A stretch of 64,000 nucleotides of DNA from Chloroflexota bacterium (GCA_965247475.1 OZ252016.1:462143-526142); one strand, 5' to 3'; positions 6,984 to 33,323 are shown, counted from the stretch's first letter. Notes: generated by a model from the sequence alone, not told the origin. Numbers and translations are program-made.

Positions 6984-7029
6984 GGCGCCGAGGTCTGCTA
7001 GCCTCCCTCGCGTTGAACAGCGCGCGCGG
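6984..7029. repeat. 46-bp element GGCGCCGAGGTCTGCTAGCCTCCCTCGCGTTGAACAGCGCGCGCGG, identical second copy at 11993-12038
   Basis: Exact 46/46 identity at two loci with unrelated flanks. Confidence 0.8.
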
Positions 7030-7386: not shown

Positions 7387-7393
7387 GCTCACC

Positions 7394-7600: not shown

Positions 7601-7651
7601 TGCCGGATGACGGCGGCGCCGCAAACCCGGAGACCCCCCGTCACTCAGTGG

Positions 7652-8611: not shown

Positions 8612-8651
8612 CGCTGCGCGCTAATCCTTGGGCAAATCTGCTACCCGGCGG

Positions 8652-13564: not shown

Positions 13565-13593
13565 TCGTGTCGCGCCGCATCCGCGCTGCGGAC

Positions 13594-13750
13594 GGCTGAC
13601 CGTCGCGCCGACGCGGAGCCGACGACTGACCGTCGTTCCGACGCCGAGCGGACCACTCACTGTCATTCCGACGCGCAGCGGAGAAATCTCACGGCGCGCC
13701 CGCGCATGTCCCCCCGTGAACCCTGAGCCAGTCGAAGGGGCACGGCAACG
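13594..13750. repeat. REP-A modules: three tandem degenerate copies of the GTCATTCCGA... unit plus a CCCGTG...CACGG hairpin module
   Basis: ctgaccgtcgcgccgacgcggagcc / ctgaccgtcgttccgacgccgagcgg / ctcactgtcattccgacgcgcagcgg, then ccccgtgaaccctgagccagtcgaaggggcacgg. Confidence 0.7.
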
Positions 13751-13859
13751 GCCCGGTCCAGGACACGTGTACCCCGGCCGCCGAGCATGCACCCGCCGCC
13801 GGCCACATAGACACAACCGACCCGCCTCGTCGTCGGCGCGACCGGGTGGTTGTTCGCCG

Positions 13860-15123: not shown

Positions 15124-16380
15124 GTGAACGAACCGAGACGTATTTCGTCCGCCCTCGCGGGCGAGGCACCGGTGGGCGCGTCGCTGCCACGACTGTTTCC
15201 GGCGCTGGCCGCGGCCATGTTCGCGGGCACCTTGCTGCTCCACAGCTTCCACGCGATTCCGCATCTGATCGCGGCGGATTTCAACCTGTCGGTCGCGGTC
15301 GTCGCGCAGGCGCTCACGATCGATGCCGCCGTATCGATTGCGGCCGCGCTCGTAGTCGTGCCCGTGTCGGATCGCGTCGGGCGTCGAGGCATGCTGCTTG
15401 CGTCGATGGTCATCAGCGCCGGCGGCGCCGTGCTGGTGGCAGCCGCTCCCGCGTTTTGGGTGGCTGCCGTCGGGTTTGCCCTGTTCGGAATCGGACGCGG
15501 CGTCACGTTCCCGCTGCTGTTTGGCACGCTGGCCGATGTCTACGCGCACCCGCGCCGCGACCCGCGCGTGGCTGCGCTGCTAGCCGTCAGCCGCATCGCA
15601 TTCATCCTGGCGCCCATCACCGCCGGATTCGTCGCGAGCGCACTCTCCTGGCGGGCGGCGTTCGGGGTTGCTTCGGCGGTCGTTGTCGCGGCGTCGCTCG
15701 TGGTCGCCGTGCGGACCCGCCGGCAGATGCGGGCGCCGCGTTCCGCGCGGTCCGGCGTCAATCCGGTCACCGGCGGCCTCCGCACCGTATGGCGATCGCG
15801 CGAGCTGCGCACGCTGCTGGCCGCCAACGTTGCGTTCGCGATTGGCGGGATGGCTTCGCTGGCCTTCGTGGGCGCGTATGTGGCTGTCGACTTCGGCCTG
15901 CGCCCGCACGAAGCGGGCCTGGTGCTGGCGGCCGGCTCCGTTGCCGCCGGCGCGGGCGCTCTGATCAGCATGCGGCTGGGCCTCCGGCACCGCCTGACCG
16001 TGAGCGTGGCCGCCGGCGTGGTCCTGGCGGGCGGCCTGCTTGGCGCCTTCGTGCTGGCCCGATCGGTGCCGCTGGTCGTGGTCGCGTTTGTCACCGGGGC
16101 GTTCGGGTATGGCCTGCGCGACACGCCGATGCGGAGCTTGATGATGGATGGCGCGCCGGGCCATCTCGGCACGATCAGCGGGCTGATTCAGGTCAGCCTC
16201 TCGACCGGTCTGCTGCTTGGCGCATCGTTCGGTGGTCTCGTGCTCGGCGTCGCCGGGTTTCCCGCGGTCGGATGGCTGCTCGCCGTCGCCGTGTTGCTCG
16301 GGACGCTGATGCTCGGGAGCGCCGCTCGTTCTGCCGCCGGCGGCCGCTCGACTCGAAGCCGCGCGGCGGCCCCGAGCTAG
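15124..16380 (+). CDS. MFS transporter
   Basis: About 12 predicted transmembrane segments and the MFS loop motif DRVGRRGML. Confidence 0.8.
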   Translation: MNEPRRISSALAGEAPVGASLPRLFPALAAAMFAGTLLLHSFHAIPHLIAADFNLSVAVVAQALTIDAAVSIAAALVVVPVSDRVGRRGMLLASMVISAGGAVLVAAAPAFWVAAVGFALFGIGRGVTFPLLFGTLADVYAHPRRDPRVAALLAVSRIAFILAPITAGFVASALSWRAAFGVASAVVVAASLVVAVRTRRQMRAPRSARSGVNPVTGGLRTVWRSRELRTLLAANVAFAIGGMASLAFVGAYVAVDFGLRPHEAGLVLAAGSVAAGAGALISMRLGLRHRLTVSVAAGVVLAGGLLGAFVLARSVPLVVVAFVTGAFGYGLRDTPMRSLMMDGAPGHLGTISGLIQVSLSTGLLLGASFGGLVLGVAGFPAVGWLLAVAVLLGTLMLGSAARSAAGGRSTRSRAAAPS

Positions 16381-16506
16381 CCTGGCGATCCCGACTTACT
16401 TTGACACGCCCGAAAATCGGTGGCTTATACTTCCCAGAACCCGCCACCGATAGGGTGGCCAGGGTGGCTGTAGCGAGCCGATCCACCCTCCGTTCCAGGT
16501 TCGCCT

Positions 16507-17409
16507 GTGTCCGGGGGAATTGGGATTCGGTCGGCTGGAGATACGGCGGTGGCGTCCATCAGCTCGGCACTTCGGCGGCCACGCGCGGCATACGCCGACA
16601 GCGTCGCCCGCTACCTGCTGCTCATCGTCCTCGGCGCGGCGGTCTTCTATCCGATCTTTTGGCTGGTCACGCACTCATTTCGGCCCAACAGCGAGATCTT
16701 CACGCACCCGGCCCAGGCGCTGCCGCCGACCCCGACTTTCGAGGCCTACGGCAAGATCTTCGGCAACGGCCTCTGGCTCCGGATCTTCATCAACAGCTAC
16801 CTCGTGGCGACGGCCACGACCATCGTGGCGATCGGGCTCGGCGCGCTCGCCGCGTACGGGATGTCGCGGTTCACGTTTCGCGGGAAGCGCCAGCTCGAAT
16901 TCTTCGTGCTGGGAACCCAGCAAATCCCGCCGGTGGCCATGATCATCCCGTTCCTTGTCGTGATCCGGCAGTTGAACGTGTACGACACCCACCTCGCGCT
17001 GGTCCTCTCGTACGCGTCGTTCGCGCTGCCGCTCGCGATCCTGATGCTCTCCACGTATTTCGCCACGATCCCTATTGAGCTCGAGGAGTCGGCCTTCATC
17101 GACGGCGCGGGACGCCTGCGCACGCTGTGGATGATCGTGCTGCCGCTGGCCGCGCCCGGCCTCGTTGCCACCGGCGTGTTCGCGTTCATCCTGTCGTTTC
17201 AAGACCTGCTCTACGCCGTCACCCTCACGGCTTCGGACGATATGCGAACGATTCCGATCGGCATCATCGTCTTCAAGGGTCAGCAGAACGTCGACTGGCA
17301 CCAGATGCTCGCGGCGTCGGTGCTCGCCAGCATCCCGCTGCTGGCGGTGTACGCGCTTGCCCAGCGCTACCTGGTGTCCGGTCTCACGCTTGGCGCGGTC
17401 AAGCAGTAG
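16507..17409 (+). CDS. Carbohydrate ABC transporter permease (MalG/UgpE-like)
   Basis: EAA loop ESAFIDGAGRLRTLWMIVLPLAAPG; six transmembrane segments. Confidence 0.85.
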   Translation: MSGGIGIRSAGDTAVASISSALRRPRAAYADSVARYLLLIVLGAAVFYPIFWLVTHSFRPNSEIFTHPAQALPPTPTFEAYGKIFGNGLWLRIFINSYLVATATTIVAIGLGALAAYGMSRFTFRGKRQLEFFVLGTQQIPPVAMIIPFLVVIRQLNVYDTHLALVLSYASFALPLAILMLSTYFATIPIELEESAFIDGAGRLRTLWMIVLPLAAPGLVATGVFAFILSFQDLLYAVTLTASDDMRTIPIGIIVFKGQQNVDWHQMLAASVLASIPLLAVYALAQRYLVSGLTLGAVKQ

Positions 17410-17546
17410 GAGCGCGGAATGGAACGAATGACCCGACAGGTGAGAGGAGGCGCTGACTAAGAGAAGATCCTGCGCGATTCTTGATCGAAGCATTCCAATG
17501 ATGAGTCGAAGGCAGATTCCTGCCACGAGCACTGAGAAGGAGCATC

Positions 17547-18893
17547 ATGATCGAACGCACGCTGACACGGCGAGGCCTGCTGCGCGTAGGCTTTGCCGGA
17601 ACCGCCGCGGTTACTACCGCGGCCATCTTCGCCGCCTGCGGTGAGGAGGAGACCCCGGCGGCCGCGGCGCCGGCGACGGCCCCGGCGGCCACGGCCGCGC
17701 CGGCCACCGAGCCGGTGAAGGAAACCGTGACCGTCGAGTACATCAATTGGGCGTTCTCCGAGCTCGGTGCGGACGCATCGGCCCAGATCCTCGACGCATT
17801 CCATTCGTCGATGCCGAGCATCAAGGTCGAGCCGCAGAACCTCGGGTTCACGCAGGCTCAGGACAAGATGGTGACGCTGCACGCGGCGGGCGCCCTGGCG
17901 GACGCGGTCCAGATCGGATTCTGGCAGGTCGGGGATTTCTTCGACCTCGGCATGATCCGTGAGGTCGAGTCGTTGGCGAGTGCCGCCAATTTCGACTGGA
18001 GCGAGTACGCGGAGCCGCTCAAGAGCAAGGCCGCGGGCAAGATCTCCGTCGTGCCCATGTCCACGATCACAGGGTTGAGTCACTTCAACCTGGACACGTT
18101 TGAAGCGGCGGGCGTCGCAGGTCCGCCGGACAACTGGGACGAGCACATCGAGACCGCCAAACAGGTGACCGACCCCGACAATTTCAAGTACGGGATCTCG
18201 CACGCCTGGGGTCTTGAGAACGCCCAGCTGTACAGCCACATGTACCCGCAGATCTGGCAGGCCGGCGGGCAGGTCGAGGACGACAACGACGGCACCTTCA
18301 GTGCCAACACCGATGAGGGCCTCGCCGCGATGGAGTACGTGCTCAGCCTCGAGCTGGAGCACAAGGTGGTCGCGCCCGGAAGTCTCGATGGCGTCGAGCA
18401 GACGCTGATCGAGAACTTTGGGTCGGGTGTGAGCGGGATGTTCTACGACAACTCGGCGCACTTGAACGGGTACCTGTCCACGGACGGTCTGAACTTCGAC
18501 GTCGGCCCGCCCCTGGTGGGACCCGCCCGGCGGTCCGGCTTCACGTTCGGTTGGCGAAACGCCATCGCCGAGCGGAGCGAGGTTGCGCAGGAGGCGTTCG
18601 ATTTCCTCGGCTGGCTCGCGAGCGTCGAGGGCAACAACTTGGTGGCGGGTCTGGGCAACCAGGTTCCGGCCAACAAGAACTCCACGCCCAACTACGCCGT
18701 CGGCGGGATGTCGAGCTTGGTGGAACAGGCGATCCATTGGGCGGGGTTCGAAGGCGCGCAAGGCCACGAGGGCTTTGGCGGCGAGCAACGCACCATCTTC
18801 GCCCGCGAGATCCACAACGCCATCAACGGTGAGGCCTCGGCCGCTGAGGTCTTGGCCGCCACGGAGGACAAGTGGAACGCGTCAGTGGCCTAG
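17547..18893 (+). CDS. Carbohydrate ABC transporter substrate-binding lipoprotein (family 1)
   Basis: Tat-lipoprotein signal (RRGLLRVGFAGTAAVTTAAIFAACG). A strong Shine-Dalgarno sequence (gaaggag) sits 7 nt upstream. Family-1 SBP length and composition. Confidence 0.8.
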   Translation: MIERTLTRRGLLRVGFAGTAAVTTAAIFAACGEEETPAAAAPATAPAATAAPATEPVKETVTVEYINWAFSELGADASAQILDAFHSSMPSIKVEPQNLGFTQAQDKMVTLHAAGALADAVQIGFWQVGDFFDLGMIREVESLASAANFDWSEYAEPLKSKAAGKISVVPMSTITGLSHFNLDTFEAAGVAGPPDNWDEHIETAKQVTDPDNFKYGISHAWGLENAQLYSHMYPQIWQAGGQVEDDNDGTFSANTDEGLAAMEYVLSLELEHKVVAPGSLDGVEQTLIENFGSGVSGMFYDNSAHLNGYLSTDGLNFDVGPPLVGPARRSGFTFGWRNAIAERSEVAQEAFDFLGWLASVEGNNLVAGLGNQVPANKNSTPNYAVGGMSSLVEQAIHWAGFEGAQGHEGFGGEQRTIFAREIHNAINGEASAAEVLAATEDKWNASVA

Positions 18894-18925
18894 CTCACGC
18901 GCGACTGCGATCGCGGTGAGCAGCT

Positions 18926-18957
18926 CCGGGGACCGCGGGACTCCCTGCGGTCCCCGG
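18926..18957 (+). terminator. GC-rich intercistronic stem-loop (CCGGGGACCGC-gggactccct-GCGGTCCCCGG) 33 nt after the sugar SBP stop
   Basis: 11-14 bp perfect stem with no U-tract. Sits between the SBP and permease genes, where partial terminators or stabilisers are common in sugar ABC operons. Confidence 0.3.
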
Positions 18958-19038
18958 CTGACGTGCCAGAACGGATGATCGGCGGACGGGTGCGCACCGG
19001 GTCCGACCGGGCGCCCCGTCGGGAAGGATCGACAGACG

Positions 19039-20004
19039 GTGGCCGAGCGAATTGAGGGGTCCGAGGCGGTCGGTGCAGGCATTCCCAACGAATCCGCGCC
19101 CCGGCAGCCGCAGGCGCGCCGGCGCAACCTGCGCCGGACATTGCTCCCGTACGCCCTCGTCGCGCCCGCCATCACCCTTCTGCTGGTGCTCATGGTGTTT
19201 CCCATGGCCCGGATGTTCCATCTCAGCCTGTTCCAGGGCGTTTTCACGCGTGCCGGGGATGAATTCGTCGGCCTCGAGAACTTCGGCGACCTGCTCCAGA
19301 GCGAGCTGTTCTGGATCTCGCTGAGGAACTCGCTGGTATTCGTTGGCCTGAGTCTCGTGGTTCACCAGATCTTCGGCGGCGGCGTGGCGCTCCTGCTCAA
19401 CCAACGCATGCGGGGACACCTGCGATCGTTCTTCCGCGGCGTCTTCATCACCCCGTGGCTGATCATTCCGGCGGTCGTGGCCATCATGTGGGTGCTGTTG
19501 CTGGACCCGCGCGGCGGCTTCAACAGCAATATGCGCTCGCTCGGGATCGTGGAGTGCTGTCCGCCGCCGGAGTGGTTCGGGAGCTTCGATCTGGCGATGC
19601 CCGCCATGATCGCCACCAACGGATGGGCCGGCTATCCGCTCACGATGATCTTCTGGCTGGCCGGCCTCCAGAGCATCCCGCTGGAGCTCTACGAGGCCGC
19701 CTCAGTGGATGGCGCCGGCCGCTGGCGGCGCTTCCGGCACATCACCTTGCCGGCCATGGGGCCGACGATTCTCACCATCCTGCTGCTCGACACGATCTAC
19801 ACGTTCCGGAACTGGGACCTGCCGTTCCTGACCACCGGCGGCGGCCCCGGCGACAGCACGATCGTCCTCCCGCTGCTCACGTATCGGGAAGCGTTTGTGA
19901 ACTTCAACTTCGGGCCGTCGGCCGCCTCGGCCGTGATGATCTTGCTGATCACCGGGTTCTTTGTGTACTGGTACCTGCGCTTTCGGGCGCGCTTGCTTCG
20001 ATAG
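19039..20004 (+). CDS. Carbohydrate ABC transporter permease (MalF/UgpA-like)
   Basis: EAA loop EAASVDGAGRWRRFRHITLPAMGPT; six transmembrane segments. Confidence 0.85.
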   Translation: MAERIEGSEAVGAGIPNESAPRQPQARRRNLRRTLLPYALVAPAITLLLVLMVFPMARMFHLSLFQGVFTRAGDEFVGLENFGDLLQSELFWISLRNSLVFVGLSLVVHQIFGGGVALLLNQRMRGHLRSFFRGVFITPWLIIPAVVAIMWVLLLDPRGGFNSNMRSLGIVECCPPPEWFGSFDLAMPAMIATNGWAGYPLTMIFWLAGLQSIPLELYEAASVDGAGRWRRFRHITLPAMGPTILTILLLDTIYTFRNWDLPFLTTGGGPGDSTIVLPLLTYREAFVNFNFGPSAASAVMILLITGFFVYWYLRFRARLLR

Positions 20005-20021
20005 GCCGCCGCCGCCCCGCG

Positions 20022-20696
20022 CTACCCCAGATTGCGCAGATCCGCCGCCCTGAAGCCGGGGGTGGTGATGGTCTCGCGGCGCTGTCGCTCGATCTCGAGC
20101 ACACCTGGAGCACGCGCGACCACTTCCTCCGCGACCTCGGCCGGAAACACGGCCACGCCGTTGATGTCCGCGTGCACGATCTCGCCGGTCTTCACCAGCG
20201 TGCCGCTGATCATCACGTCCAGCCCCGCCTGCACGATCTCGGGCGTGCCGTGCGCGGGTGCCGCGCCCGCCGCGAAGTACTGGAATCCCAGCTCGCTCAC
20301 GGTCTCGATGTCGCGCACGCCGCCGTCGGTCACGAGCCCGATTGCGCCCAGCGTGAGCGAGATCGTCGCCATCACGTCGCCACAGTGTGCCGACCGGTAC
20401 CGGTCCGGCCCCACGTCCTTGAGCACCAATACCGACGGTCGCGGCGACTGCTCAACCAGCTCATACCACTGCGCGAACCCGTCGCCCTTCTCCGGCGCGC
20501 CCGGTACGGTGCTGCGGCCGGTGGCAGTGACCGCATAGCCGACCATCGGTCCCATCTCCGGGAACATGCATCGGACGTCGTAGCCCATGTAGCCGTCGGT
20601 CGGGTCCCGGATCCCCAGCTCCTCGACCGCGTTGCAGATCGTTGGCGTGTCGAAGGCGCGCAGTTTCTCGATGATCTGGGGGGACGGTTCGGTCAT
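20022..20696 (-). CDS. RraA family protein (RNase E regulator / 4-hydroxy-4-methyl-2-oxoglutarate aldolase fold)
   Basis: RraA/MenG-like motifs (TPTICNAVEELG, GDVMA, VTDGGVRD). Start at MTEPSPQ (20696). Confidence 0.7.
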   Translation of the reverse strand: MTEPSPQIIEKLRAFDTPTICNAVEELGIRDPTDGYMGYDVRCMFPEMGPMVGYAVTATGRSTVPGAPEKGDGFAQWYELVEQSPRPSVLVLKDVGPDRYRSAHCGDVMATISLTLGAIGLVTDGGVRDIETVSELGFQYFAAGAAPAHGTPEIVQAGLDVMISGTLVKTGEIVHADINGVAVFPAEVAEEVVARAPGVLEIERQRRETITTPGFRAADLRNLG

Positions 20697-20976
20697 GCGG
20701 GTACCTCTCTTCCGGTGCGCTCGGCGCGCTTCCACCGAGCGCGGCTCCGTTATGCCAGACAGTAGGCAAGAGGTCGTGAGCGGGCAAGTCCGCGCGGCGC
20801 CGGCGTACGTGCGCACCCGTCCGCCAGGCCGTGATTCCGCTCTCCGGCTAGCGACCGTTTGCGGCGCGTGGCCATGCCGGGCCCGCGGCCGCCGATGGCG
20901 ACGCCCGCGCCGCTGGTGCTAGTCTCCGCGCCGCACCCGGCGAGCACACGGAGCAGCCAGCTTGAAGTACGAACGC

Positions 20977-21642
20977 ATGCGGCCTGACCAGATTGAGGCG
21001 GTGCGCGCCCAGGTTCCCGTCGCGATCCTGCCCTGGGGCGCGCTCGAGTGGCACGGCTACCACCAGGCGATCGGCCTGGACGCGCTCAAGGCCACCGCGT
21101 TCGCCGACGCCGTGGCGGACCGGATCGACGCGATCTCGCTCCCGCCGCTCTATTGCGGGCACGGCACCATGAAGCCCCAGGCCGGGTTCGGCCATACGAT
21201 TGAAGTCTCCGCGTCCACCCTCGAGTTGCTCGCGCGCGACTACGTTGCGCAGCTTGCCGAGGAGGGCTTCGAGGTGGTCGTGATCATTTCGGGCCACGGA
21301 AACCCGGACCATCTGGCAGCGCTCGAGAAAGGCGGCCGGCCGGAGGCCGAGCGGGCCGGGATCGATTTGTGGATCCTGCCCGATAGCGCGGCGATCGACG
21401 ACGACGAATACCCGCTCGACCACGCGGCGAAGTGGGAGACCAGCGTTCTGTGGGCGGTCGAGCCCGACCTCGTCGACCTGAGTCACTACCGATCCGATCT
21501 ATCGGGCGATCAGCAGGGAGTCCTTGGCGTGCAGCCGGTTGGGGCCGCCTCTCGCGAGCGCGGCCAGCAGGCGTTCGACGAGGTCGTCGCCACCATCGCC
21601 GATGGGGCGCTCCAGCTGCTCAACCAGCGGCGGGCCGGCTAG
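20977..21642 (+). CDS. Creatininase family amidohydrolase
   Basis: LPWGALEWHGYH, ISGHGNPDH and E...W metal-ligand pattern typical of creatinine amidohydrolase family. ATG at 20977; the ORF track gives the TTG at 20962. Confidence 0.7.
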   Translation: MRPDQIEAVRAQVPVAILPWGALEWHGYHQAIGLDALKATAFADAVADRIDAISLPPLYCGHGTMKPQAGFGHTIEVSASTLELLARDYVAQLAEEGFEVVVIISGHGNPDHLAALEKGGRPEAERAGIDLWILPDSAAIDDDEYPLDHAAKWETSVLWAVEPDLVDLSHYRSDLSGDQQGVLGVQPVGAASRERGQQAFDEVVATIADGALQLLNQRRAG

Positions 21643-21689
21643 CCGCGGTTCCCACCACCCGTGTTCGCCGATCGCCGCAACCGGTCGAG

Positions 21690-22030
21690 GGTCATCCCGA
21701 CGCGGAGCGGAGAACCGCGTGTCGTCATGTCATTCCGAGGCGAAGCCGAGGAATCTCATGGTCACCGGACCGGCGAAAGCCTTGTATGTCCCGACGCCCT
21801 CGGATTGTCCGAGGGAACGCGTAGGGCCGGGACAGACCGCAAAAGCCTCGTTTGGTCCGCGTCCATCGAACGGCCCATCCCGAGTCTGTCCAAGGAGCCG
21901 CGCGCCGGCGCATGTCCCCCCGGTGCGCCCTGAGCCCTTGGGCTGGCTCAGGGCAGCCCCCTCCCCCGTGCACCCTGAGTCTGTCGAAGGGGCACGGGAA
22001 TCGCGTGGCTCATCGCTCCCATGTCAAGGC
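21690..22030. repeat. Cluster of REP-A/MITE-like modules (GTCATTCCGAGGCGAAGCCGAGGAATCTCATGG..., CCCGTGCACCCTGAGCCTGTCGAAGGGGCACGGGAAT) filling the creatininase/DUF917 intergenic region
   Basis: The same modules recur at 6131-6192, 7394-7600, 13594-13750, 25920-26000, 27724-27936, 41305-41500, 42585-42670, 53253-53310, 56634-56682 and 60400-60440. Confidence 0.75.
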
Positions 22031-22045
22031 GAGGGATAGGCGCCG

Positions 22046-23140
22046 ATGTCCGGACTGACCCCGCTTACGCCCGACGATCTCGACGCGCTCCAGACCGGCG
22101 CCTGGATCCTCGGCGCCGGCGGCGGGGGCGACCCCTACTTCGGCTACCTCGCGATCAAGAAGCTCTATCGCGAGGGCAAGCGCATCTCACTCCTGGACCC
22201 GTCCGACCTGCGCGACGACGCGTGGGTGGCGGCCGTGAATCAGATGGGGTCGCCGCTGCCGGCGGAGGAACGGCTCACCGATCCCGCCACGATCGCCAAA
22301 GCCGTCCGGCGCATGGAGCAATACCAGGACATCCGGTTCGACGCCGTGATGCCCTGGGAGATCGGCGGCGGCAACGCCTTCCAACCCTTGCTGGCCGCGG
22401 CGATGCTCGACCTCCCGGTCGTGGACGCCGACGCCATGGGCCGCGCTTTTCCCGAGGCCCAGATGACCAGCTTCGCGGTGATGGACTACACGCCCTATCC
22501 GCTCGTCATGGCCGACATCCGCGAGAACACCCTGATCATTGCCGAGGCCGTCGACTGGAAGTGGCTCGAGCGGCTGCGGCGGCGCGCCTGCGCCGAGCTC
22601 GGCGCGATCGCCGCGACCTGTAACCCGCCGCGGACCGGCCATGAGGTCAAGACCGGCAGCCATCTCCACACCGTCACCAAGGCGCTGCGGATCGGGCGCG
22701 CCGTGCACGGCGCGCGGGCGCGCAAGGCCGATCCGGTGCGCGCCGTCATCGATCTCGAGGACGGGCTGATTCTGTTCGAGGGCAAGGCCACGGACGTGGA
22801 TCGACGGACCACGAGCGGCTATCTGCGCGGATCGCTGACCATCGAAGGCCTGGACGGCCGCCGCGGCGAGACCTTCACCCTGGACTTCCAGAACGAGTTC
22901 TCCGTAGCCCGACGAGACGGCCGGGTGGTCGCGACCGCACCGGAGCTGCTCTGCGTGCTGGATCGCGAGACCGGCGAGGCGATCGGCACCGAGGTCATCC
23001 GCTACGGCCAGCGCGTCACGGTGATCGCGCTGCCCGCGCCGCCGCTCTTGCTCACCGAGCGCGGCCTCGAGCTCACCGGGCCCCGGGCGTTCGGATACGA
23101 CCTGGACTTCAAGTCGGTGTTCGACGGGACAGCCGCGTGA
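22046..23140 (+). CDS. DUF917 family protein
   Basis: Characteristic DUF917 N-terminus (GAWILGAGGGGDPY) and length. Translationally coupled (GTGA overlap) to the downstream hydantoinase-like gene, which is the canonical DUF917 genomic context. Confidence 0.7.
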   Translation: MSGLTPLTPDDLDALQTGAWILGAGGGGDPYFGYLAIKKLYREGKRISLLDPSDLRDDAWVAAVNQMGSPLPAEERLTDPATIAKAVRRMEQYQDIRFDAVMPWEIGGGNAFQPLLAAAMLDLPVVDADAMGRAFPEAQMTSFAVMDYTPYPLVMADIRENTLIIAEAVDWKWLERLRRRACAELGAIAATCNPPRTGHEVKTGSHLHTVTKALRIGRAVHGARARKADPVRAVIDLEDGLILFEGKATDVDRRTTSGYLRGSLTIEGLDGRRGETFTLDFQNEFSVARRDGRVVATAPELLCVLDRETGEAIGTEVIRYGQRVTVIALPAPPLLLTERGLELTGPRAFGYDLDFKSVFDGTAA

Positions 23141-24669
23141 GGGTGATCGGTATCGACGTCGGCGGCACCAACACCGATGCCGTGCTGCTCGACGACCGCC
23201 GGGTGCTCGACGCCGTCAAGCGACCGACGACGCCGGATGTCTCGACCGGCATATCCCAGGCGCTGGGCGAAATCGTCGCGCGACGCCCGCTCGAGTCGGA
23301 CCGGGTCGATGCGGTCATGCTCGGTACCACCCACTTCACCAATGCCGTTGCGCAGCGACGCGGGCTGTCCAAGGTCGCCGCCATTCGGATCGGTCTGCCG
23401 GCCACGGCCTATCTGGAGCCGCTGGTCGATTGGCCGTCCGATCTCGCCGCTCTCGTCCGCGGCCGCACCTTCATGGTGCGCGGCGGCCATGAATACGACG
23501 GCCGGCCGATCGTCCCCTTCGATGAGGCCGGTATGCGTCGCGCGGCCGAGGAGATCGGCGCCGCCGGACTGACCTCCGTGGCCATCACGTCCGTGTTCGC
23601 CCCGCTGACCGCGGAGCTCGAGCACCGGGCGGCCGAGATCGTGCGCGCGGCCTGTCCCGATGCGCGCGTCACGCTCTCGCACCGGCTGGGCCGGATCGGA
23701 CTGCTCCCCCGCGAGAACGTGACGATCCTGAACGCCAGCCTGCTCGACCTTGCCGAGACCACCGTTGGGGCCTTTCGGTCGGCGCTGCGCGCCAGCGGCC
23801 TCACGGCGCCGCTGTTCCTCACTCAGAACGACGGCACCGTCATGCATGCCGACTACGCCCAGGCGTTCCCGGTCTACAGCTTTGCGTCCGGGCCGACCAA
23901 CAGCATGCGCGGCGCGGCCTTCTTGTCCGGGCTGTCGGACGCCGTGGTCGTGGATGTGGGCGGCACTACCACCGATGTCGGATGTCTGCGCCGCGGGTTC
24001 CCGCGTGAGGCCAACAGCGCCGTCGAGATCGGCGGAGTGCGGAGCCTGTTCCGCATGCCCGATCTGTTCTCGATCGCGCTCGGCGGCGGCACGCGCGTCC
24101 ACGAGGATCCGCTCGCGATCGGACCCGAGAGCGTCGGCTATGAGCTGCTCGCCCGCGGCCGCGCGTTCGGTGGCGGCGAGCTCACCTGCACCGACGTCGC
24201 GGTGGCGGCCGGGCTGGTCGACCTCGGCGACCGCGAGCTGGTTCGCTCACTGCGCCCGGGGCTGATCGAAGCCGTCCGCGGCGAGCTGCGATTGATGATC
24301 CAGACCTGCGTCGAACGAGTGAAGACGGATGCGGCCGAAACGCCGTTGATCGCGGTCGGCGGCGGCGCGTTCCTGATCCCCGACCAGCTCGACGGTGTGT
24401 CCGAGATCGTCCGCGTGGAGCATCATGCGGTCGCGAACGCCGTCGGCGCGGCGATCGCCCAGGTGAGCGGCGAGGCCGACCGGGTGTTTCAAGACGTCAC
24501 CCGCGATCGAGCGATCGGCCGGGCCACCGAGCTCGCCGAGGCCAATGCGGTCGAGGCCGGCGCCAACCCCCGAACGCTCGAGTTGGTCGAACTGGAGGAC
24601 CTCCCGCTGGCGTATCTGCCCGGCAACTCGCTGAGGGTCCGTGCGAAGGTGGTAGGTGAGATCGCGTGA
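23137..24669 (+). CDS. Hydantoinase/oxoprolinase family protein (shorter HyuA-like partner of DUF917)
   Basis: N-terminal IGIDVGGTNTD ASKHA-fold motif and a second VVVDVGGTTTD motif. About 510 aa, shorter than canonical HyuA. Confidence 0.75.
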   Translation: MRVIGIDVGGTNTDAVLLDDRRVLDAVKRPTTPDVSTGISQALGEIVARRPLESDRVDAVMLGTTHFTNAVAQRRGLSKVAAIRIGLPATAYLEPLVDWPSDLAALVRGRTFMVRGGHEYDGRPIVPFDEAGMRRAAEEIGAAGLTSVAITSVFAPLTAELEHRAAEIVRAACPDARVTLSHRLGRIGLLPRENVTILNASLLDLAETTVGAFRSALRASGLTAPLFLTQNDGTVMHADYAQAFPVYSFASGPTNSMRGAAFLSGLSDAVVVDVGGTTTDVGCLRRGFPREANSAVEIGGVRSLFRMPDLFSIALGGGTRVHEDPLAIGPESVGYELLARGRAFGGGELTCTDVAVAAGLVDLGDRELVRSLRPGLIEAVRGELRLMIQTCVERVKTDAAETPLIAVGGGAFLIPDQLDGVSEIVRVEHHAVANAVGAAIAQVSGEADRVFQDVTRDRAIGRATELAEANAVEAGANPRTLELVELEDLPLAYLPGNSLRVRAKVVGEIA

Positions 24670-24759
24670 GCGGCACGCCTGGTGGCCCGACCTTCAGGTC
24701 GGGATGTCAGGCGCCTAGCGGCGGATGCGCCGCGTCTACTCGGGAATAGGACGGTCTGC

Positions 24760-25860
24760 ATGGCGAGCATCGAGGTCGACCAGGATCGCTTGCTGCGGAC
24801 GTTTCTCGAGCTGGTCGGCGTGGACAGCTTCCACGGCCGCGAGGATTCCGTCGCTGAATTGCTCACCGGCTACCTCGAACCGCTGGGCGTGGAGTTTCGC
24901 CGCGACCCGATCGGCAACCTCATCGGCGTGTGGGACGAGGGTTCCGACGATCGTGTGCCCATCATGCTCAACGCGCACATGGACACCATCCGCCCGACGG
25001 AAGGGATGAGGCCGGAGGTCCGGGACGGCGCCGTCTATTCAGATGGGTCGAGCGTGCTCGGCGCCGACGACAAGGCCGGGCTCGCCGCGATCGTCGAGGC
25101 CATGCGCGCGGTCGGCGAGGCTGGCCACGCGCACGGTCCGGTCGAGCTGGTGTTCACGGTCGGCGAGGAGGTCGGGCACGTTGGCTCGCGCGCGTTCGAT
25201 CTGACCGGCGTGCAGTCGCGCCGTGCGTTTGTGCTGGACTCCACCGCCCCGGTCGGCGGCATCGTCACCCGCGCGTCGGGTCGTCGCGAGTTGCGGGCCG
25301 CGTTCACCGGCGCGGCCGCGCACGCCGGCGCCGCGCCCGAGCTGGGAGTCAGCGCGATCGCGATGGCCGCGCACGCGATCGCACGCATGCCGCTCGGTCG
25401 GATCGACGCCGACACGGTCGCGAACATCGGGACCATTGCGGGTGGGCAAGCGGACAACATCGTCGCGCCCGAGGCCCGCATCACCGGCGAGGCCCGCAGC
25501 CTCAGCGAGCACGGGCTCGACCTTCAGATCGACGCCATGACCGCCGCCATGGACGCCACCGCGGCGGAGTTCGGCGGTTCCGTCGACTACCAGGTCGAGA
25601 GCTTCGTGCGGGCCTACGCGCTCGAGGGCGCCGATCCCGTGGTCCACCTCGCGGAGGCCGCGATTCGAGCCGCCGGCCTCGAGCCCGCCCACGTCGCCAC
25701 GGGTGGCGCCAGCGACGCGCATCAGTTCATCGCGAACGGGCTTCCCTCCGCCTGCCTCGGCGCGGGCTACGTCAACGTCCACTCGGACGATGAGTACATG
25801 CCGCTGGATGCGCTCGGAAGCCTGGCGGCAGTGACGATCCAACTCATCCTCAACGCCTGA
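24760..25860 (+). CDS. M20/M42 family metallopeptidase (peptidase T / tripeptidase-like)
   Basis: Metal-ligand motifs (NAHMDT, GADDKAG, GEEVG) and a C-terminal dimerisation region. Start at MASIEV (24760). Confidence 0.75.
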   Translation: MASIEVDQDRLLRTFLELVGVDSFHGREDSVAELLTGYLEPLGVEFRRDPIGNLIGVWDEGSDDRVPIMLNAHMDTIRPTEGMRPEVRDGAVYSDGSSVLGADDKAGLAAIVEAMRAVGEAGHAHGPVELVFTVGEEVGHVGSRAFDLTGVQSRRAFVLDSTAPVGGIVTRASGRRELRAAFTGAAAHAGAAPELGVSAIAMAAHAIARMPLGRIDADTVANIGTIAGGQADNIVAPEARITGEARSLSEHGLDLQIDAMTAAMDATAAEFGGSVDYQVESFVRAYALEGADPVVHLAEAAIRAAGLEPAHVATGGASDAHQFIANGLPSACLGAGYVNVHSDDEYMPLDALGSLAAVTIQLILNA

Positions 25861-25862
25861 GC

Positions 25863-25932
25863 GACCGGCATCCCATGCAGGGGCAACCCTTGTGGGTGCC
25901 CTCGGTGGCGGCTCCGTGCATCCCTCCTGTCA
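25863..25932. repeat. REP-C element (GACCGGCATCCCATGYAGGGGCAACCCTYGTGGKTGCCCTCGGTGGYGGCTCCG...), second copy at 61214-61284
   Basis: About 90% identity between the two copies. Each lies just downstream of a + strand gene stop (M20 peptidase; O-methyltransferase). Contains a GGGCAACCC/GGGTGCCC hairpin. Confidence 0.7.
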
Positions 25933-26044
25933 TTCCGAGGCGAAGCCGAGGAATCCCATGGCCACCGGACCGGCCAAGCCCTGCCCTGAGTCTCTCGAAG
26001 GAACCCCGCCCCCGTCCGCACGCGAGCCAACAGACGCGTAGCCG

Positions 26045-27634
26045 CTAGCGCTTCCCCCAGCCCCCGCCGCCCGGCGTCTCGACGCTGACCGCGTCGCCGG
26101 CCTCCAGTTCGATCGCGGCCTTCCCGCCGATCGTGCGCCAGCGGCCGCCTTGCCGGACCCGGTTGCGACCGCGGCGCCCCGGCTCGCCGCCGCGCAAGCC
26201 CCACGGCGCGCGTCGTCGCCGCTCCGTCGCCAGCGTCAGCGTGCCCGCAGCGAGCGCTTCCAGATCGCGTCGCACGCCATCGCCGCCGCGATGCCGCCCG
26301 CGCCCGCCGGTGCCCTGCCTGACCTGGTATCGCAGCACCCGCAATGGATAGGCGAGCTCGAGCGCTTCGATCGGCGTGTTCAGCGTGTTCGACATCGCCA
26401 CGTGGATCGCCGACTGTCCATCGCCGCCGGGTCCCGCGCCGGCCCCGCCGGCGATGGTCTCGTAGTAGGTAAACGGCGCGTTGAGGCGGGGGTCGTGCCC
26501 TCCCATCAGCACGTTGTTCATCGTCCCCTGCGAGGCGGCCGGCACGATGTCGGGGATCGCCTGCGCCAGCGCCCCCCACACCACGTCCGCCACGCGCTGC
26601 GAGGTCTCCACGTTGCCCGCCGACACCGCGGCCGGCCAGATCGGGTTGAGCAAGCTTCCTTCCGGAACCCGGATGTCGACCACCTCGAACGCCCCGTCGT
26701 TCTGGGGCACGTCGGCGCCAACGAGACAGCGGATGACATAGATAACCGCGGACCGGCTGATGGCTTCCGGCGCGTTGATCGCGCCGCGCGCCTGCGCGCC
26801 GGTACCGGCGAAATCAACCCGCAGCTGGCCGCGCCGGGCGGTGATCGTCACTCTGATCGGAACCGGGTCGCCTCCGAGCCCGTCGTCGTCCATCGCATCT
26901 TCGAATCGGTACACGCCGTCGGGAATGACGCCCAGGCGCCGCAGCGCCAGGCGCTCGGTGTACGCCAGCAGGTCGTCCGCCATGCGGTGCAGCGTCGCCC
27001 CGCCGTACTTGCGCGTAAACGCGCGCAACCGCGTCTCGCCGACGCCGTGCGAGGCCAGTTGGGCCTCGAGGTCGCCGCGCCGCTCCTCCGGCGTGCGCAC
27101 GTTGTGGCAAAGCAGCTGGACGAACTCCTCATTCAGCGTCCCCGCGTCGACGAGCTTGAGCGGCGGGATCACGAAGCCCTCTTGAAAGATCTCCTTCGCC
27201 GGTGGCATCGAGCCGGGCGCCATCCCCCCGATGTCCGCATGATGCGCGCGCGTCGCGAGCCAGCCCCAGAGCGTCTCGCGGTCTCCGTCGGGAACGTACA
27301 CGGGTGACACCGTGGTGATGTCGGGGAGATGCGTCCCGCCTCGAAACGGGTCGTTCAAGATCACCACATCGCCGGGAGTTGGCGCCGCGCCCCCGTAGAA
27401 CTTGATCGCCGACCGCACCGACATGGGCATCGCGCCCAGGTGCGCCGGCACGTGCGCCGCCTGCGCGATCATCCGCGCGTGCTGGTCGAACACCGCGCAC
27501 GAGTGGTCGCGCCGCTCCTTGATGTTCGGCGAGTAGGCGCTGCGCTGTATGGTCACGCCCATCTCCTCGGCCACCGAGGCAAAGAGATGCCGGAACACCT
27601 CCAGCTCGAACTCGAGGGATCGCCGTCGCGCCAT
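26045..27634 (-). CDS. hyuB: Hydantoinase B/oxoprolinase family protein
   Basis: HyuB hallmark regions (DHSCAVFD, GGTHLPDITTVSPV, C-terminal GGGGWG); 529 aa. Confidence 0.85.
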   Translation of the reverse strand: MARRRSLEFELEVFRHLFASVAEEMGVTIQRSAYSPNIKERRDHSCAVFDQHARMIAQAAHVPAHLGAMPMSVRSAIKFYGGAAPTPGDVVILNDPFRGGTHLPDITTVSPVYVPDGDRETLWGWLATRAHHADIGGMAPGSMPPAKEIFQEGFVIPPLKLVDAGTLNEEFVQLLCHNVRTPEERRGDLEAQLASHGVGETRLRAFTRKYGGATLHRMADDLLAYTERLALRRLGVIPDGVYRFEDAMDDDGLGGDPVPIRVTITARRGQLRVDFAGTGAQARGAINAPEAISRSAVIYVIRCLVGADVPQNDGAFEVVDIRVPEGSLLNPIWPAAVSAGNVETSQRVADVVWGALAQAIPDIVPAASQGTMNNVLMGGHDPRLNAPFTYYETIAGGAGAGPGGDGQSAIHVAMSNTLNTPIEALELAYPLRVLRYQVRQGTGGRGRHRGGDGVRRDLEALAAGTLTLATERRRRAPWGLRGGEPGRRGRNRVRQGGRWRTIGGKAAIELEAGDAVSVETPGGGGWGKR

Positions 27635-27723
27635 GGCGTGAAGCGTATCCGACCCGAGGTGACCGACCTAGCCGAGGTCCCCGCCGCTCGTCAGCGCAGG
27701 TCCCCGCAGCGGCCTCCGTGTGA

Positions 27724-27936
27724 TGTCATTCCGAGGCGCAGCCGAGGAATCTCATGGCCACCGGAGCGGCGAAAGCCCGTCCTTCTGTGTTTGCCTGGGG
27801 CTGGGGCTGCTAGGGTCCCCGGCGGACGGCGGGGGTGACTCGGCCAGTCAGTCGCTGAGTCCATCGAAAGAATTTCACCGCGCCCCGGGCGTGTCTCCCC
27901 GTGCATCCTGAGCCTGTCGAAGGGTGCGCGGGTCGA
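27724..27936. repeat. REP-A composite element between hyuB and the GH-like gene
   Basis: gtcattccgaggcgcagccgaggaatctcatggccaccggagcggcgaaagcc ... ccccgtgcatcctgagcctgtcgaagggtgcgcggg. Confidence 0.7.
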
Positions 27937-27947
27937 CCCGGCGCGCG

Positions 27948-29660
27948 TCACCCGTCGGGCTCGACCGCCGAGTAGTCGGTCATGATCGAAAGGCGCTCGC
28001 GCGTGACCATGTTGTAGTCGCCCAGCCGCGTGATCACCATCTCGGACGGCGCCAGCGATGGCTCGCCGGCGCGCTGCCACGCCGCCAGCTCATCCTCGTG
28101 CCCCAGCCGCCGAATCGCCGTCCACGAGCGGCCGAGATCGTTCCGCGAGTCCGTGTCCCAAAAGGCGAGCTTGGGAACCCCGGCGCGGTACAGCTCCAGC
28201 GCGTAGCGGCGGAACTCCGCGGGCGGTTGCTGGCGCGGCATCACGCTCACCGCCAGCTCGCAGCTGGTCTCCCTCGTCAGGTCGACGAACCAGGCGATGT
28301 CCTCGAGATTCCAGCGGCCGCCGGACTTGGTCACCGAGTTGTCCGGGATCAGCATGTCGACCAGCCCCTCGGCGACCCACGTCTCCAGGTCCAGACCGTA
28401 GAACATGTTCTCGGCCTCGCTGCCCATCACCCACGCAGAGATCGGCACACGCTTGCCCTTGCGCGCGCCGATCTCGTCCATCGCCGCCCGCACCTCGCGC
28501 ATGAACGTCGTCAGCGCCGCGCACCGGTACCGCAGCCAGCGCCCGTCACGCTCATCGAGCGTGCGCGGGTCCAGGCCGGTCTCCGCCTCGAACCCCTCGA
28601 CCAGCGGCGCCTCGTACATCACGTGCGGCGGCTGGCGGTTGTGGAGCAGACACAGACCGTCGATGTCGTACTCGGCGATCTCCCGCAGGATCGATAGCAC
28701 GAGCCGTCGAACGCCCGGGAACGCGTAGCTCAAGCGCCCCACGTCGCGGCCGTCCCGATCGATGCAGCGCCATTCCGGATGCGTGTAGAACGGGCCGTCG
28801 AGGCTCCGCTCCTCCATGGGCGTCATGTCCATGAAGCCCATGTTCAGGCGATAGGCGGCGTGGAACTCCAGGCCCATCTCGCGAACGTATTCCACCGCCA
28901 GCTTGGGCGGGTCGATCCCCTGCGCCGCCAGCGACGCCCAGTTCTCCGAGGCGCGGCGGTCGATGACGCGCCCGCCTTCCCCGTCCGCGAGAAAGGACGC
29001 CCACGTGCGGCCGGTCTCCGTGGCGTACGCGCACACATCACCCATCGCGAACTCATAGGTGAGCCGCCCGAAATCGGTGTGCCGGTACGGCTCGACGTAC
29101 TCCCGAATGTCAGCGGCGGTGATGTCCTCCACCGCGAAGTACAGGCCCGAGGCGTCGTGGTGCGCGATTAGGCGCTTCGCATCCGCGCCGGCGCGGTCCG
29201 CCTCCACCGCCGCAACCTCATCCGCCGCCAGCGGAACCAGCTTCACGTACGCGATGTAGGCCGGCAGTCCGGCATCGCCCCGCCGGAAGACGATGTCCTG
29301 CCCGGTCAGGTCGGCGTTCCGCCAGAAGACGTCCTCGACGCGCGACACGAAGTTGCGCTCATGCGCGTAGCCGACGTGCAAGAAGCCTGGATCGCCGCTC
29401 AACCTCACCCGCGCGCCGGTCGGCCCGCTCCGCGTGTACATCCCGAGCCAGATCGAGTACCAGCCGTCCAGGTCGAGCGGGTACCTGACATCCGGCGGCG
29501 CCGTCTCCTCGCCCAGGACCAGCATGCGGCCGGCGAACTCGGTGGTCTCGTAGCGCCAGGCTTTCCACGTGTGTTTGGTGCGCAGCTCAGAGACCGCCGT
29601 GCCGGGGACGCATCGATCCAGGTCGTTGAGGTAGATCGTGCCGTCCGCGGCTCGGTGCAT
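27948..29660 (-). CDS. Hypothetical protein, putative TIM-barrel glycoside-hydrolase-like protein
   Basis: 570 aa with no signal peptide and Trp/Asp/Glu-rich strand-end motifs (WVMGSE, LAFWDTD, LLHNRQPPHVMYEAPLVEGFEAETG). Co-directional with the sugar permeases and last in the operon. The family assignment is tentative. Confidence 0.4.
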   Translation of the reverse strand: MHRAADGTIYLNDLDRCVPGTAVSELRTKHTWKAWRYETTEFAGRMLVLGEETAPPDVRYPLDLDGWYSIWLGMYTRSGPTGARVRLSGDPGFLHVGYAHERNFVSRVEDVFWRNADLTGQDIVFRRGDAGLPAYIAYVKLVPLAADEVAAVEADRAGADAKRLIAHHDASGLYFAVEDITAADIREYVEPYRHTDFGRLTYEFAMGDVCAYATETGRTWASFLADGEGGRVIDRRASENWASLAAQGIDPPKLAVEYVREMGLEFHAAYRLNMGFMDMTPMEERSLDGPFYTHPEWRCIDRDGRDVGRLSYAFPGVRRLVLSILREIAEYDIDGLCLLHNRQPPHVMYEAPLVEGFEAETGLDPRTLDERDGRWLRYRCAALTTFMREVRAAMDEIGARKGKRVPISAWVMGSEAENMFYGLDLETWVAEGLVDMLIPDNSVTKSGGRWNLEDIAWFVDLTRETSCELAVSVMPRQQPPAEFRRYALELYRAGVPKLAFWDTDSRNDLGRSWTAIRRLGHEDELAAWQRAGEPSLAPSEMVITRLGDYNMVTRERLSIMTDYSAVEPDG

Positions 29661-31706: not shown

Positions 31707-33323
31707 CTAGTCAAGCACCTCAAACCCGAAGATCGTCGCCTTGCGCATTCGGAACTGCAGGACCACCGGCCCGAAGTTGGGGCCGTCGAGCGCGTTACCG
31801 CCGGCCCAGCGGACCGGCGCGTCCAGATGGTCGCCCGAGATAGGCCTCGCATCGTCGATCCCGCGACCGTCCTGCGCCTGCCCGCCCACCAGGTGACGCC
31901 CGGGATTCTGCTCCGCGTGCAACGCTGCCACCCGAACCTCGCCGTCGCTGGCGGTCTTGACGTTCACCTGCAGGCGGCGGCCATGCAGCCGCAGCACCGG
32001 CGTATGAAACTCGCCGTCCCCGGCGGCTTCGAGCCCCGCGATTCGACCCCGCGGCCACATCGCCCAGGCCGTCCCCGTCTTGGCGTTCGGCCCTGGGTGC
32101 TTGTGCGGTTTCGACGAGCCGCCGAACGGGATGCCGATCTTGTCGCCTGGCAGCTCCACCAGCCCCTTTGATGAGAACAGCGACGCGGAATCGAAGCTGC
32201 CCTCCGGTCCCGGCTCGACCACCGGATTGCCGGGAACCCAGTTCCAGGCCATGTCGTCCGGGCTCGCGGCCACGCCGATGGTGGTCAAGTCGGTCGCGCG
32301 GTCGTACAGCGTTGGGAACATGAGATGGGTGCTCGGGTCCCCCGGATAGGTCGCCTTGCCGCTCGTGTATAGATCGGTGGTCGCCGCGCCCGCCGGGGGC
32401 GCGGTGACCACCGGCGACGGCAGCGGCCAATCGAAGAAGTCGGGTGACTGCGCCCGCGCGATCGTGCGCCGGTCGAAGCTCCAGCCGCGCGTGTACCACA
32501 CGTACGCCTCTAGGTCCGGATTCCAGTCGACCGAGTTCTTCGTGTCGCTGAACGTGATCACAACCGGGTCAGGATGCGGCACCCACTCGATGCCGTCGTA
32601 TGAGGTCGCCACGAATATCGCGGCCGGGTCGCTCGGGTTGCTGCGATAGGCGGTCCACGGGTCCACCTGGTCGGGCCGCGCGCGCGACCATTCGCGCACG
32701 ACCTCAGGTGTCGTCGCACCCATATACAGCGACTTGTAGCGCTGGTGCGCGGGCGCGCGAGGATCGACGAACATCACCTCCCCGTGGATGCCGGGCGGCC
32801 CGGTGAGCTCGCGGCCAAACACGATGTTGGTGTCGGCGTCCTGCCAGCGGTAGAGCCCGAAGGTCGGCTTGCGCCACTCGAATCCGTCGTCCGACTCCGC
32901 GTACCCGACCAGCGCGCGGTAATCGGGCGGCCATGGCAGCGCCGCGGCCGCCGCCGGATCTCGCGCGTCCGGCAGATTCACGTGGTACCACATCCGGTAG
33001 AGCCCGCCGTCGCGGACCACGGCGCCGCCGCCGCAGGATTGCTCCCACGGCGCCGACGGCGTCAGGATCGGCTCGCTCCGTTCGGCCGGCTGGGCGCGCA
33101 GTTCGATTCCGTGCGGGACGGCCCAGTGACCCGGGCGGATCGCATCCGGATCGTCCACGCCCTCTTCCAGGCGGCCGCCGCCGTGCGGGTTGGTCGAGAG
33201 CGACCGGCCGCCCGCGCCCAGCCAGCGCACCCGGCCCGCGTAGACGTAGCGATAGTCCACGAACGGGTGATACCCCGCGGCGACATCGAACGGCGGCGCG
33301 CGGCCGAGCAGTGGGTCAGGCAC
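31707..33323 (-). CDS. Glycoside-hydrolase-like beta-propeller protein (paralogue of 12080-13564) with C-terminal beta-sandwich
   Basis: EPILTPSAPWEQSCGGGAVVRDGGLYRMWYH first-blade motif and GYAESDDGFEWRKP. Its C-terminal domain resembles that of the 12080-13564 protein. Confidence 0.5.
   Translation of the reverse strand: MPDPLLGRAPPFDVAAGYHPFVDYRYVYAGRVRWLGAGGRSLSTNPHGGGRLEEGVDDPDAIRPGHWAVPHGIELRAQPAERSEPILTPSAPWEQSCGGGAVVRDGGLYRMWYHVNLPDARDPAAAAALPWPPDYRALVGYAESDDGFEWRKPTFGLYRWQDADTNIVFGRELTGPPGIHGEVMFVDPRAPAHQRYKSLYMGATTPEVVREWSRARPDQVDPWTAYRSNPSDPAAIFVATSYDGIEWVPHPDPVVITFSDTKNSVDWNPDLEAYVWYTRGWSFDRRTIARAQSPDFFDWPLPSPVVTAPPAGAATTDLYTSGKATYPGDPSTHLMFPTLYDRATDLTTIGVAASPDDMAWNWVPGNPVVEPGPEGSFDSASLFSSKGLVELPGDKIGIPFGGSSKPHKHPGPNAKTGTAWAMWPRGRIAGLEAAGDGEFHTPVLRLHGRRLQVNVKTASDGEVRVAALHAEQNPGRHLVGGQAQDGRGIDDARPISGDHLDAPVRWAGGNALDGPNFGPVVLQFRMRKATIFGFEVLD

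Follow-up and report, generated by a model that had tools for sequence, protein, structure and literature searches.

A 64-kb stretch of DNA from a Chloroflexota bacterium (GCA_965247475.1 OZ252016.1:462143-526142; hereafter the window) carries, at positions 20022 to 27634, genes for an RraA-like protein, a creatininase-family protein, a DUF917 protein, a short HyuA-like ATPase, an M20 peptidase, and a hydantoinase B (HyuB), most of which the original prediction had combined into a single cyclic-amide pathway. The best explanation of the sequence appears to be a different one, in which the region is pieced together from four independent units (the RraA/creatininase genes, a DUF917-HyuA-like-M20 block, HyuB, and a GHL10/ABC-transporter operon) and does not encode one pathway. 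At its core would be a cyclic-amide hydrolase that depends on ATP and has two subunits, with DUF917 standing in the place of HyuB, and that feeds the peptidase. Taken as a whole, we give this explanation an even chance of being correct.

All six genes of the original prediction were recovered in place by a listing of open reading frames (ORFs) and by Pfam and NCBIfam scans, which together provided the gene map. A gene picker based on codon-position GC content, validated on the window, gave the same gene set and was used instead of a first unsupervised ORF clustering, which was dropped because it was too noisy in high-GC DNA. The G+C content of the window is ~68%, the nearest relatives of its proteins are from Chloroflexota, and metagenome assemblies in ENA hold contigs that are near-identical to it.

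The DUF917/HyuA-like gene pair

The DUF917 gene (22046-23140, plus strand, 364 residues; PF06032 + PF20906, the Pfam domains S-Me-THD_N and S-Me-THD_C) and the gene for the short HyuA-like ASKHA ATPase (23137-24669, plus strand, 510 residues; Pfam Hydant_A_N and partial Hydantoinase_A) overlap by a GTGA stop/start at 23137-23140. An alignment of the window's DUF917 subfamily, with one genome taken per species, yielded 80 loci with 55-72% identity from Chloroflexota, Methylomirabilota/Rokubacteria, Rhizobiales and other Alphaproteobacteria, Gemmatimonadota, and Acidobacteriota, and neighbors were counted by tblastn of window proteins within ~10 kb of DUF917. The HyuA-like gene lies directly downstream of DUF917 in 76 of the 80 species loci, and the extrapolated gap within the pair is 11 nucleotides or less in 65 of those 76, which bears out the translational coupling that had been proposed from the overlap. 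In the same 80 loci, creatininase-family genes and M20 genes of the window's type were each found near DUF917 in none, an RraA-like gene in one, and HyuB in two, so that a gene-neighborhood association of DUF917 with HyuB did not emerge. Moreover, in one of the two HyuB-bearing loci, HyuB sits beside a second HyuA-type match (28% identical), apparently its own partner. Among the genes of the region, only the DUF917/HyuA-like pair is universal in relatives.

When 1.84 billion cluster representatives were searched exhaustively with HMMER, the DUF917 family was found to comprise 3992 of them at 50% identity. Twenty-seven of the top 150 are proteins of 736-1451 residues with a C-terminal DUF917 region, and nine of the ten long proteins scanned carry HyuA-type domains N-terminal to S-Me-THD_N/C as judged by Pfam. 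Seven of these nine fusions have Hydant_A_N plus a truncated Hydantoinase_A, whose match covers the first ~150-215 of 291 model positions, like that of the window protein, and the two shorter ones have Hydantoinase_A only. The fusion proteins P0370, P0383, P0385, P0394, P0400, P0442, and P0482 are ~980-1450 residues long. The hosts are eukaryotes, represented by the starfish Acanthaster planci (RefSeq models), Anaeramoeba ignava, Pelomyxa schiedti, Ancoracysta twista, and an MMETSP transcript. Because the domains of the fusions run in the opposite order to the bacterial genes, these proteins are not read-through artifacts, and because both proteins are joined in one eukaryotic polypeptide, DUF917 rather than HyuB is seen to be the cognate partner of the short ATPase. 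Eukaryotic 5-oxoprolinase, a HyuA-HyuB fusion, is a parallel case. An 803-residue protein (P0353) in which DUF917 precedes the HyuA-like part, as in the bacterial gene order, was not used, as the last ~65 DUF917 residues are missing and it is probably a deletion or frameshift artifact.

In several respects, the 510-residue protein resembles the ATPase subunit of the HyuA/HyuB lactamases (N-methylhydantoinase, 5-oxoprolinase, and CapAB; 6YRA, 7HK5/9H03), in that it has an ASKHA core with an alpha/beta insertion and a second subunit encoded adjacent to it. However, a canonical full-length HyuA has ~690 residues and comprises this core plus C-terminal alpha+beta and barrel domains, both of which the 510-residue protein lacks. 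Its match to Hydant_A_N is complete, that to Hydantoinase_A (PF01968) covers positions 1-176 of 291 only, and Hydant_A_C (PF19278) is absent; correspondingly, it aligns to residues 1-382 of N-methylhydantoinase (7HK5) and to residues 8-422 of 696 of CapA (6YRA). The equivalents of CapA D11, T15, D18, K32, D295, G298, T299, D302, and P272, which were assigned to nucleotide, Mg, and substrate phosphorylation in the CapAB study (PMC8453981), are conserved in this alignment, the first eight being identical, and invariant in 40 homologs of the 510-residue protein. All nucleotide and phosphoryl-transfer residues are thus kept, the ATPase motifs are intact, and the protein is predicted to be an ATPase. 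An AlphaFold2 model (predicted local distance difference test score, pLDDT, of 84) gave template modeling (TM) scores against HyuA-type subunits in Foldseek of 0.72-0.75 when normalized by query and 0.54-0.60 when normalized by target, and the low target-normalized values agree with the missing Hydant_A_C.

An alternative is that the HyuA-like protein is an activase that uses ATP to activate or maintain DUF917, for example, by loading a metal or cofactor or by reactivating it, while DUF917 alone would carry out a hydrolytic or desulfurase-type reaction. ASKHA ATPases are known as activators in GlmL/MutL and BcrAD/BadFG, and in Pfam and NCBIfam the 510-residue protein weakly matches MutL/GlmL (32 bits) and BcrAD_BadFG. 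In canonical enzymes, the C-terminal domains of HyuA, which are missing here, contribute to the tunnel and interface, and NCBIfam names the DUF917-family desulfurases as single-protein enzymes. Nevertheless, we consider such a role unlikely because the equivalents of D11, P272, and D302 around the proposed substrate site of CapA are kept in addition to the nucleotide site, and because strict 1:1 gene pairing and eukaryotic fusion are more in keeping with a catalytic subunit present in stoichiometric amounts than with a substoichiometric activase.

The DUF917 protein scores 180.6 bits for S-Me-THD_N and 213.6 bits for S-Me-THD_C against a Pfam gathering cut-off of 27, so both domains pass. Its AlphaFold2 model (pLDDT of 92) has a single solved match, the structural-genomics entry 2o3i (TM score of 0.80), and no similarity to HyuB, which sets the ATPase partner apart from that of the HyuA/HyuB lactamases. 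Family names in NCBIfam and Pfam mark relatives of DUF917 as thiohydantoin and S-methyl-thiohydantoin desulfurases. The ergothioneine-catabolism desulfurases (NF058529, NF058532) share the two-domain DUF917 fold family and act at C2 of a hydantoin-type ring, and the ergothioneine pathway also has an M20 amidohydrolase, ErtE, which the window M20 matches weakly. However, the window DUF917 falls far below the two thiohydantoin-desulfurase equivalog cut-offs (105.6 versus 450 and 85.7 versus 440, NCBIfam), the window holds no ergothionase or thiourocanate hydratase context, and the window's DUF917 subfamily, unlike these desulfurases, is paired with an ATPase. In the literature searched, we found no functional study of DUF917/PF06032, of a thiohydantoin desulfurase, or of ATP-dependent diketopiperazine hydrolysis. 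The view that the pair is conserved but functionally uncharacterized therefore holds: it is a widespread, conserved, and biochemically uncharacterized module, of which the window copy is an ordinary instance with unrelated amidohydrolase genes alongside.

The genes upstream of the pair recur across species. Directly upstream, in 78 loci, there are AroM racemase-like genes (29), LuxR-type regulators (19), ABC permeases (9), and SBP_bac_5 (8). The second and third upstream genes (133 calls, Pfam) add 25 AroM, 21 SBP_bac_5, and 18 permease calls, which brings AroM to 54 calls over the three upstream positions in the 78 loci; OPT transporters are also common. Downstream of the pair, a Pfam scan of the flanking calls revealed no recurrent gene. 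The AroM-DUF917-hydantoinase-like clusters of Stella humosa (locus L012), Rhizobium, and Clostridioides difficile (CDR20291_1615-1617) contain the same pair with 55-72% identity and tight spacing, and the C. difficile pair has been co-listed among regulated genes (PMC12915319). Relatives with 70-71% identity have PhyH and nitrile-hydratase-like neighbors.

Three unrelated peptidase types lie beside the pair in three lineages. An M20 gene is found in the window and in a Methylomirabilota locus (L013), where the string reads AsnC, SBP_bac_5, two permeases, M20, NicX, DUF917, HyuA-like, and M19 and M24 genes are found in a Chloroflexota locus (L177) whose DUF917 is 73% identical to that of the window. 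In L177, a divergent RraA (minus strand)/creatininase (plus strand) pair lies ~6.8 kb upstream of the DUF917 pair, and the intervening genes encode gluconolactonase-like (SGL) proteins, a MocA oxidoreductase, an M19 dipeptidase, and a Creatinase_N/M24 peptidase; M20 and HyuB are absent from this locus. As a separate observation in L177 (2458-3338 and 8113-8964), one SGL (gluconolactonase/SMP-30) gene is apparently in three fragments, whereas the copy that immediately precedes DUF917 is intact.

Independent units and a solitary HyuB

Block boundaries were established by blastn of the window against the sibling contigs L001 (98.6% identical) and L003 (~90%). The window is colinear with these siblings in blocks spanning 15159-21648, 22042-25863, 26018-27762, and 27934 onward, and the spacers between blocks are variable. 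The first, a 403-bp repeat-rich spacer (21643-22045), parts the creatininase-family gene from DUF917, so these two genes are not contiguous. In L003, it is replaced by 2.1 kb (6842-8998) containing a minus-strand glycosyltransferase gene (UDPGT/EryCIII-like) between creatininase and DUF917. The second is the convergent spacer between M20 and HyuB (25861-26044), which is an insertion hot-spot in sibling strains: L001 and L002 carry a 3.9-kb insertion (L001 13948-17878) at window position 25990/26022 with an IS1595 transposase, an MmeI-type methyltransferase/restriction gene, and a small ORF, and L003 has a DndB-family gene at this location (12789-14829). The third (27635-27947) lies between HyuB and the GHL10 gene upstream of it, and its stretch 27763-27933 does not align to L003.

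All three spacers hold the same two dispersed REP-like repeats, both of which recur at further intergenic sites in the window. The first family is a ~55-bp REP/MITE-like element, TGTCATTCCGAGGCGAAGCCGAGGAATCTCATGGCCACCGG, with copies at 21727-21781, 25928-25974, 27723-27777, 56635-56683, 53254-53309, 41322-41350, and 7407-7446. The second is the palindrome-like motif CCCTGAG..GTCGAAGGG, which has five exact matches in the window (6164, 13722, 21879, 21974, and 42637) versus 0.1 expected, plus a similar copy at 27897-27924; a second repeat copy in the 403-bp spacer occupies 21963-22003. Because the spacers are variable and bear repeats, and because the interval from the HyuA-like gene to M20 is free of such repeats, DUF917, HyuA-like, and M20 constitute one discrete block. 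A single transcription unit for the region is not supported by these data, given that the repeat-bearing spacers hold mobile or unrelated genes in siblings. A search of the spacer before DUF917 returned no Rfam riboswitch or leader at E <=1, and a miRNA Rfam match inside the DUF917 gene was rejected as a chance hit.

The M20 gene (24760-25860, plus strand) is the last gene of the block 22042-25863 and lies in the same conserved block as DUF917 and HyuA-like in L001 and L003. It encodes a PepT-like peptidase that passes the TIGR01883 cut-off (305.2 versus 274.25 bits). The longest ORF begins at GTG 24682, but the start is more likely ATG 24760, which gives 366 residues, because gene callers choose it in sibling contigs and it aligns with the N-terminus of a homolog. 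The M20 of L013, which stands in the same gene string as the DUF917 pair, is 44% identical to the window protein.

The creatininase-family metal amidohydrolase gene (20962-21642, plus strand, 221-226 residues; PF02633, 127 bits) and the RraA-like/HMG-aldolase-family gene (20022-20816, minus strand; PF03737, 80 bits) are divergent, as they are in L177, where the RraA orthologue is 75% identical. The former fails the creatininase equivalog TIGR04448 (80 bits versus a cut-off of 235) and is assigned at family level only. For the latter, the longest ORF has 264 residues, the gene callers for sibling contigs give 224, and all NCBIfam equivalogs remain far under their cut-offs.

The HyuB gene (26045-27634, minus strand, 529 residues; PF02538, 685 bits) converges on M20 across the variable spacer. 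Alignment indicates that its product keeps the Asp-His-Asp-His metal site, with equivalents of the ligands D41, H99, D102, and H124 identified in CapB (PMC8453981); because this tetrad is kept, HyuB looks functional. Unlike the HyuA/HyuB lactamases, it has no full-length HyuA adjacent or fused to it, and when all 64 kb were searched by tblastn with the window proteins, no further HyuA or HyuB appeared, so HyuB is solitary within this distance and lacks a canonical HyuA partner, as had been noted. The same is true of its relatives. Five loci, representing four relatives with 57-70% identity, carry HyuB at 8001-9584 (L008 and L009), 8001-9611 (L010), 8001-9548 (L011), and 6001-7593 (L176), and in all five it is solitary, with no HyuA-type gene within 6-8 kb, in a conserved neighborhood of valS, HD-domain, LigT-like, and Amidohydro_2 genes; in L176, the end of valS and the beginning of HyuB share an ATGA. 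Because the window HyuB is as close to these valS-linked proteins as they are to one another, its solitary state is a property of the whole clade rather than a local accident. Judged from these comparisons, the window HyuB belongs to a partnerless Chloroflexota clade, has another location in this lineage, and stands apart from the DUF917 block as its own unit.

These data also allow the original proposal to be weighed, namely that the creatininase-family protein, the DUF917/HyuA-like pair, M20, and HyuB form one cyclic-amide/hydantoin pathway in which the 510-residue protein acts in trans as the HyuA for HyuB. All of the genes do lie within 7.6 kb, a HyuB with intact ligands and no HyuA in 64 kb needs a distant ATPase or another mode of action, the 510-residue protein has what looks like a competent HyuA-type ATP site, and the order of RraA/creatininase and the DUF917 pair is kept in L177. 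However, most comparative evidence contradicts the proposal. The species survey did not associate creatininase, the window-type M20, or, in all but two loci, HyuB with the pair, and the five HyuB loci of the four relatives do without a HyuA-type gene. M20 and HyuB are convergent, with mobile or unrelated DNA between them in siblings. In addition, the eukaryotic fusions join the HyuA-like part to DUF917 and not to HyuB, and the 510-residue protein lacks the alpha+beta domain whose omega loop, together with helix N, makes the CapA-CapB contacts (PMC8453981). We therefore regard a single pathway as very unlikely, and a partnership in trans with HyuB is not borne out, whereas a cyclic-amide or peptide-like substrate stands as a reasonable guess. 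From the sequence comparisons, creatininase/RraA and HyuB are neighbors of the DUF917 block, not members of its operon.

Proposed reaction and substrates

For the favored explanation, in which the short HyuA-like ASKHA ATPase and its obligate partner DUF917 would make up a two-subunit enzyme with DUF917 as the hydrolytic subunit, we infer ATP-dependent ring opening, a substrate class, and a role for the peptidase. The ATPase would phosphorylate an imported cyclic amide or ureide, for example, a 5-substituted hydantoin or a 2,5-diketopiperazine, at its carbonyl oxygen. The next step, which depends on water and takes place at the activated imidate carbon, would be the task of DUF917, and this carbon would be the position at which the thiohydantoin desulfurases, characterized relatives of DUF917, displace sulfide or methanethiol. 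Cleavage of the linear product to amino acids would, in this lineage, fall to the M20 peptidase. This mechanism is suggested because HyuA chemistry is conserved in the ATPase and because the DUF917-family desulfurases displace hydrolytically at ring C2.

The neighborhoods suggest that the substrates may be racemizable, imported, peptide-like rings such as 5-substituted hydantoins and diketopiperazines. This suggestion derives from AroM, the peptide-type transporters, the occasional dipeptidases, and the M20 gene of the window, and from a published enrichment of DUF917 and AroM beside cyclodipeptide oxidase genes (bioRxiv 10.1101/2023.09.25.559410). The same neighborhoods could be read in favor of a nonhydrolytic, ATP-dependent reaction (carboxylation, amidine formation, or epimerization) on a small imported metabolite, since the frequent AroM neighbor suggests that stereochemistry matters. 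HyuA-type ATPases also serve carboxylases, and acetone/acetophenone carboxylase subunits rank level with lactamases among the Foldseek matches of the 510-residue model. However, the characterized relatives of DUF917 are hydrolytic, as judged by their NCBIfam names, the neighborhoods are rich in uptake systems and hold no downstream carboxylate-processing genes, and peptidase neighbors recur in three lineages. We consider a nonhydrolytic reaction quite unlikely.

Several observations weigh against the two-subunit hydrolase feeding the peptidase. The DUF917 fold offers no independent hint of hydrolase chemistry. The DUF917 relatives in ergothioneine catabolism appear to act without an ATPase, and so the HyuA-like ATPase might be accessory. 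Relative to the AroM-DUF917-hydantoinase-like clusters, the window has no AroM and no peptide-type (SBP_bac_5/OPT) transporter beside the pair; its nearby ABC system is of the SBP_bac_1 type, and a PepT-like M20 lies downstream instead. The gap from the HyuA-like stop to ATG 24760 of M20 is 90 nucleotides, which makes cotranscription less certain. The 25 most frequent neighbors in the 80 species loci include no peptidase family, and none of the best 80 M20 relatives in JGI metagenomes lies near a DUF917 or HyuA-like gene. Given this result and the absence of the window-type M20 from all 80 species loci, a general link between M20 and the pair was rejected. Finally, scans for sigma-70 promoters and intrinsic terminators gave nothing above shuffled expectation and did not confirm the transcript boundaries, so the transcript ends cannot be read from the sequence.

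A more ambitious joint reading would have the pair represent a distinct and very widespread class of ATP-dependent cyclic-amide hydrolases that extends from bacteria to animals, with DUF917 as the replacement for HyuB, and would have the valS-linked HyuB act without any HyuA. Members of this class would open imported rings derived from peptides, such as 2,5-diketopiperazines or 5-substituted hydantoins, and pass the product on to a dipeptidase. We put this forward as a tentative and somewhat doubtful extension of the favored explanation.

Flanking genes and wider meaning

On the left, the region is preceded by ABC importer genes at 16507-20004 (plus strand), which have the unusual order permease, SBP_bac_1-type solute-binding protein, permease, with no ATPase gene adjoining. 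In L001 and L002, an MFS transporter gene lies just upstream of these importer genes, corresponding to approximately 15181-16389 of the window. On the right, a gene for a GHL10 glycosyl-hydrolase-like protein (27948-29660, minus strand) is followed by genes for two ABC permeases (29674 onward, minus strand). This permease-permease-GHL10 string is headed by a 538-residue ORF (31707-33323, minus strand) with gene-typical codon-position GC and no Pfam or NCBIfam match, whose position suggests that it may encode a divergent solute-binding protein.

It would be unwarranted to annotate the apparent seven-gene cluster as a creatinine/hydantoin pathway or to pair HyuB with the 510-residue protein. Three features reach beyond the window, namely DUF917 in the place of HyuB, the eukaryotic fusion, and the partnerless HyuB clade beside valS. 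The DUF917/HyuA-like pair is among the larger conserved gene pairs without an assigned reaction, and it ranges over soil and marine bacteria and gut Clostridia, with the fusion present in protists and a starfish. Placing DUF917 as the partner of the ATPase would narrow the biochemical search to a two-protein assay and suggests racemizable, peptide-like cyclic amides as the candidate substrates.

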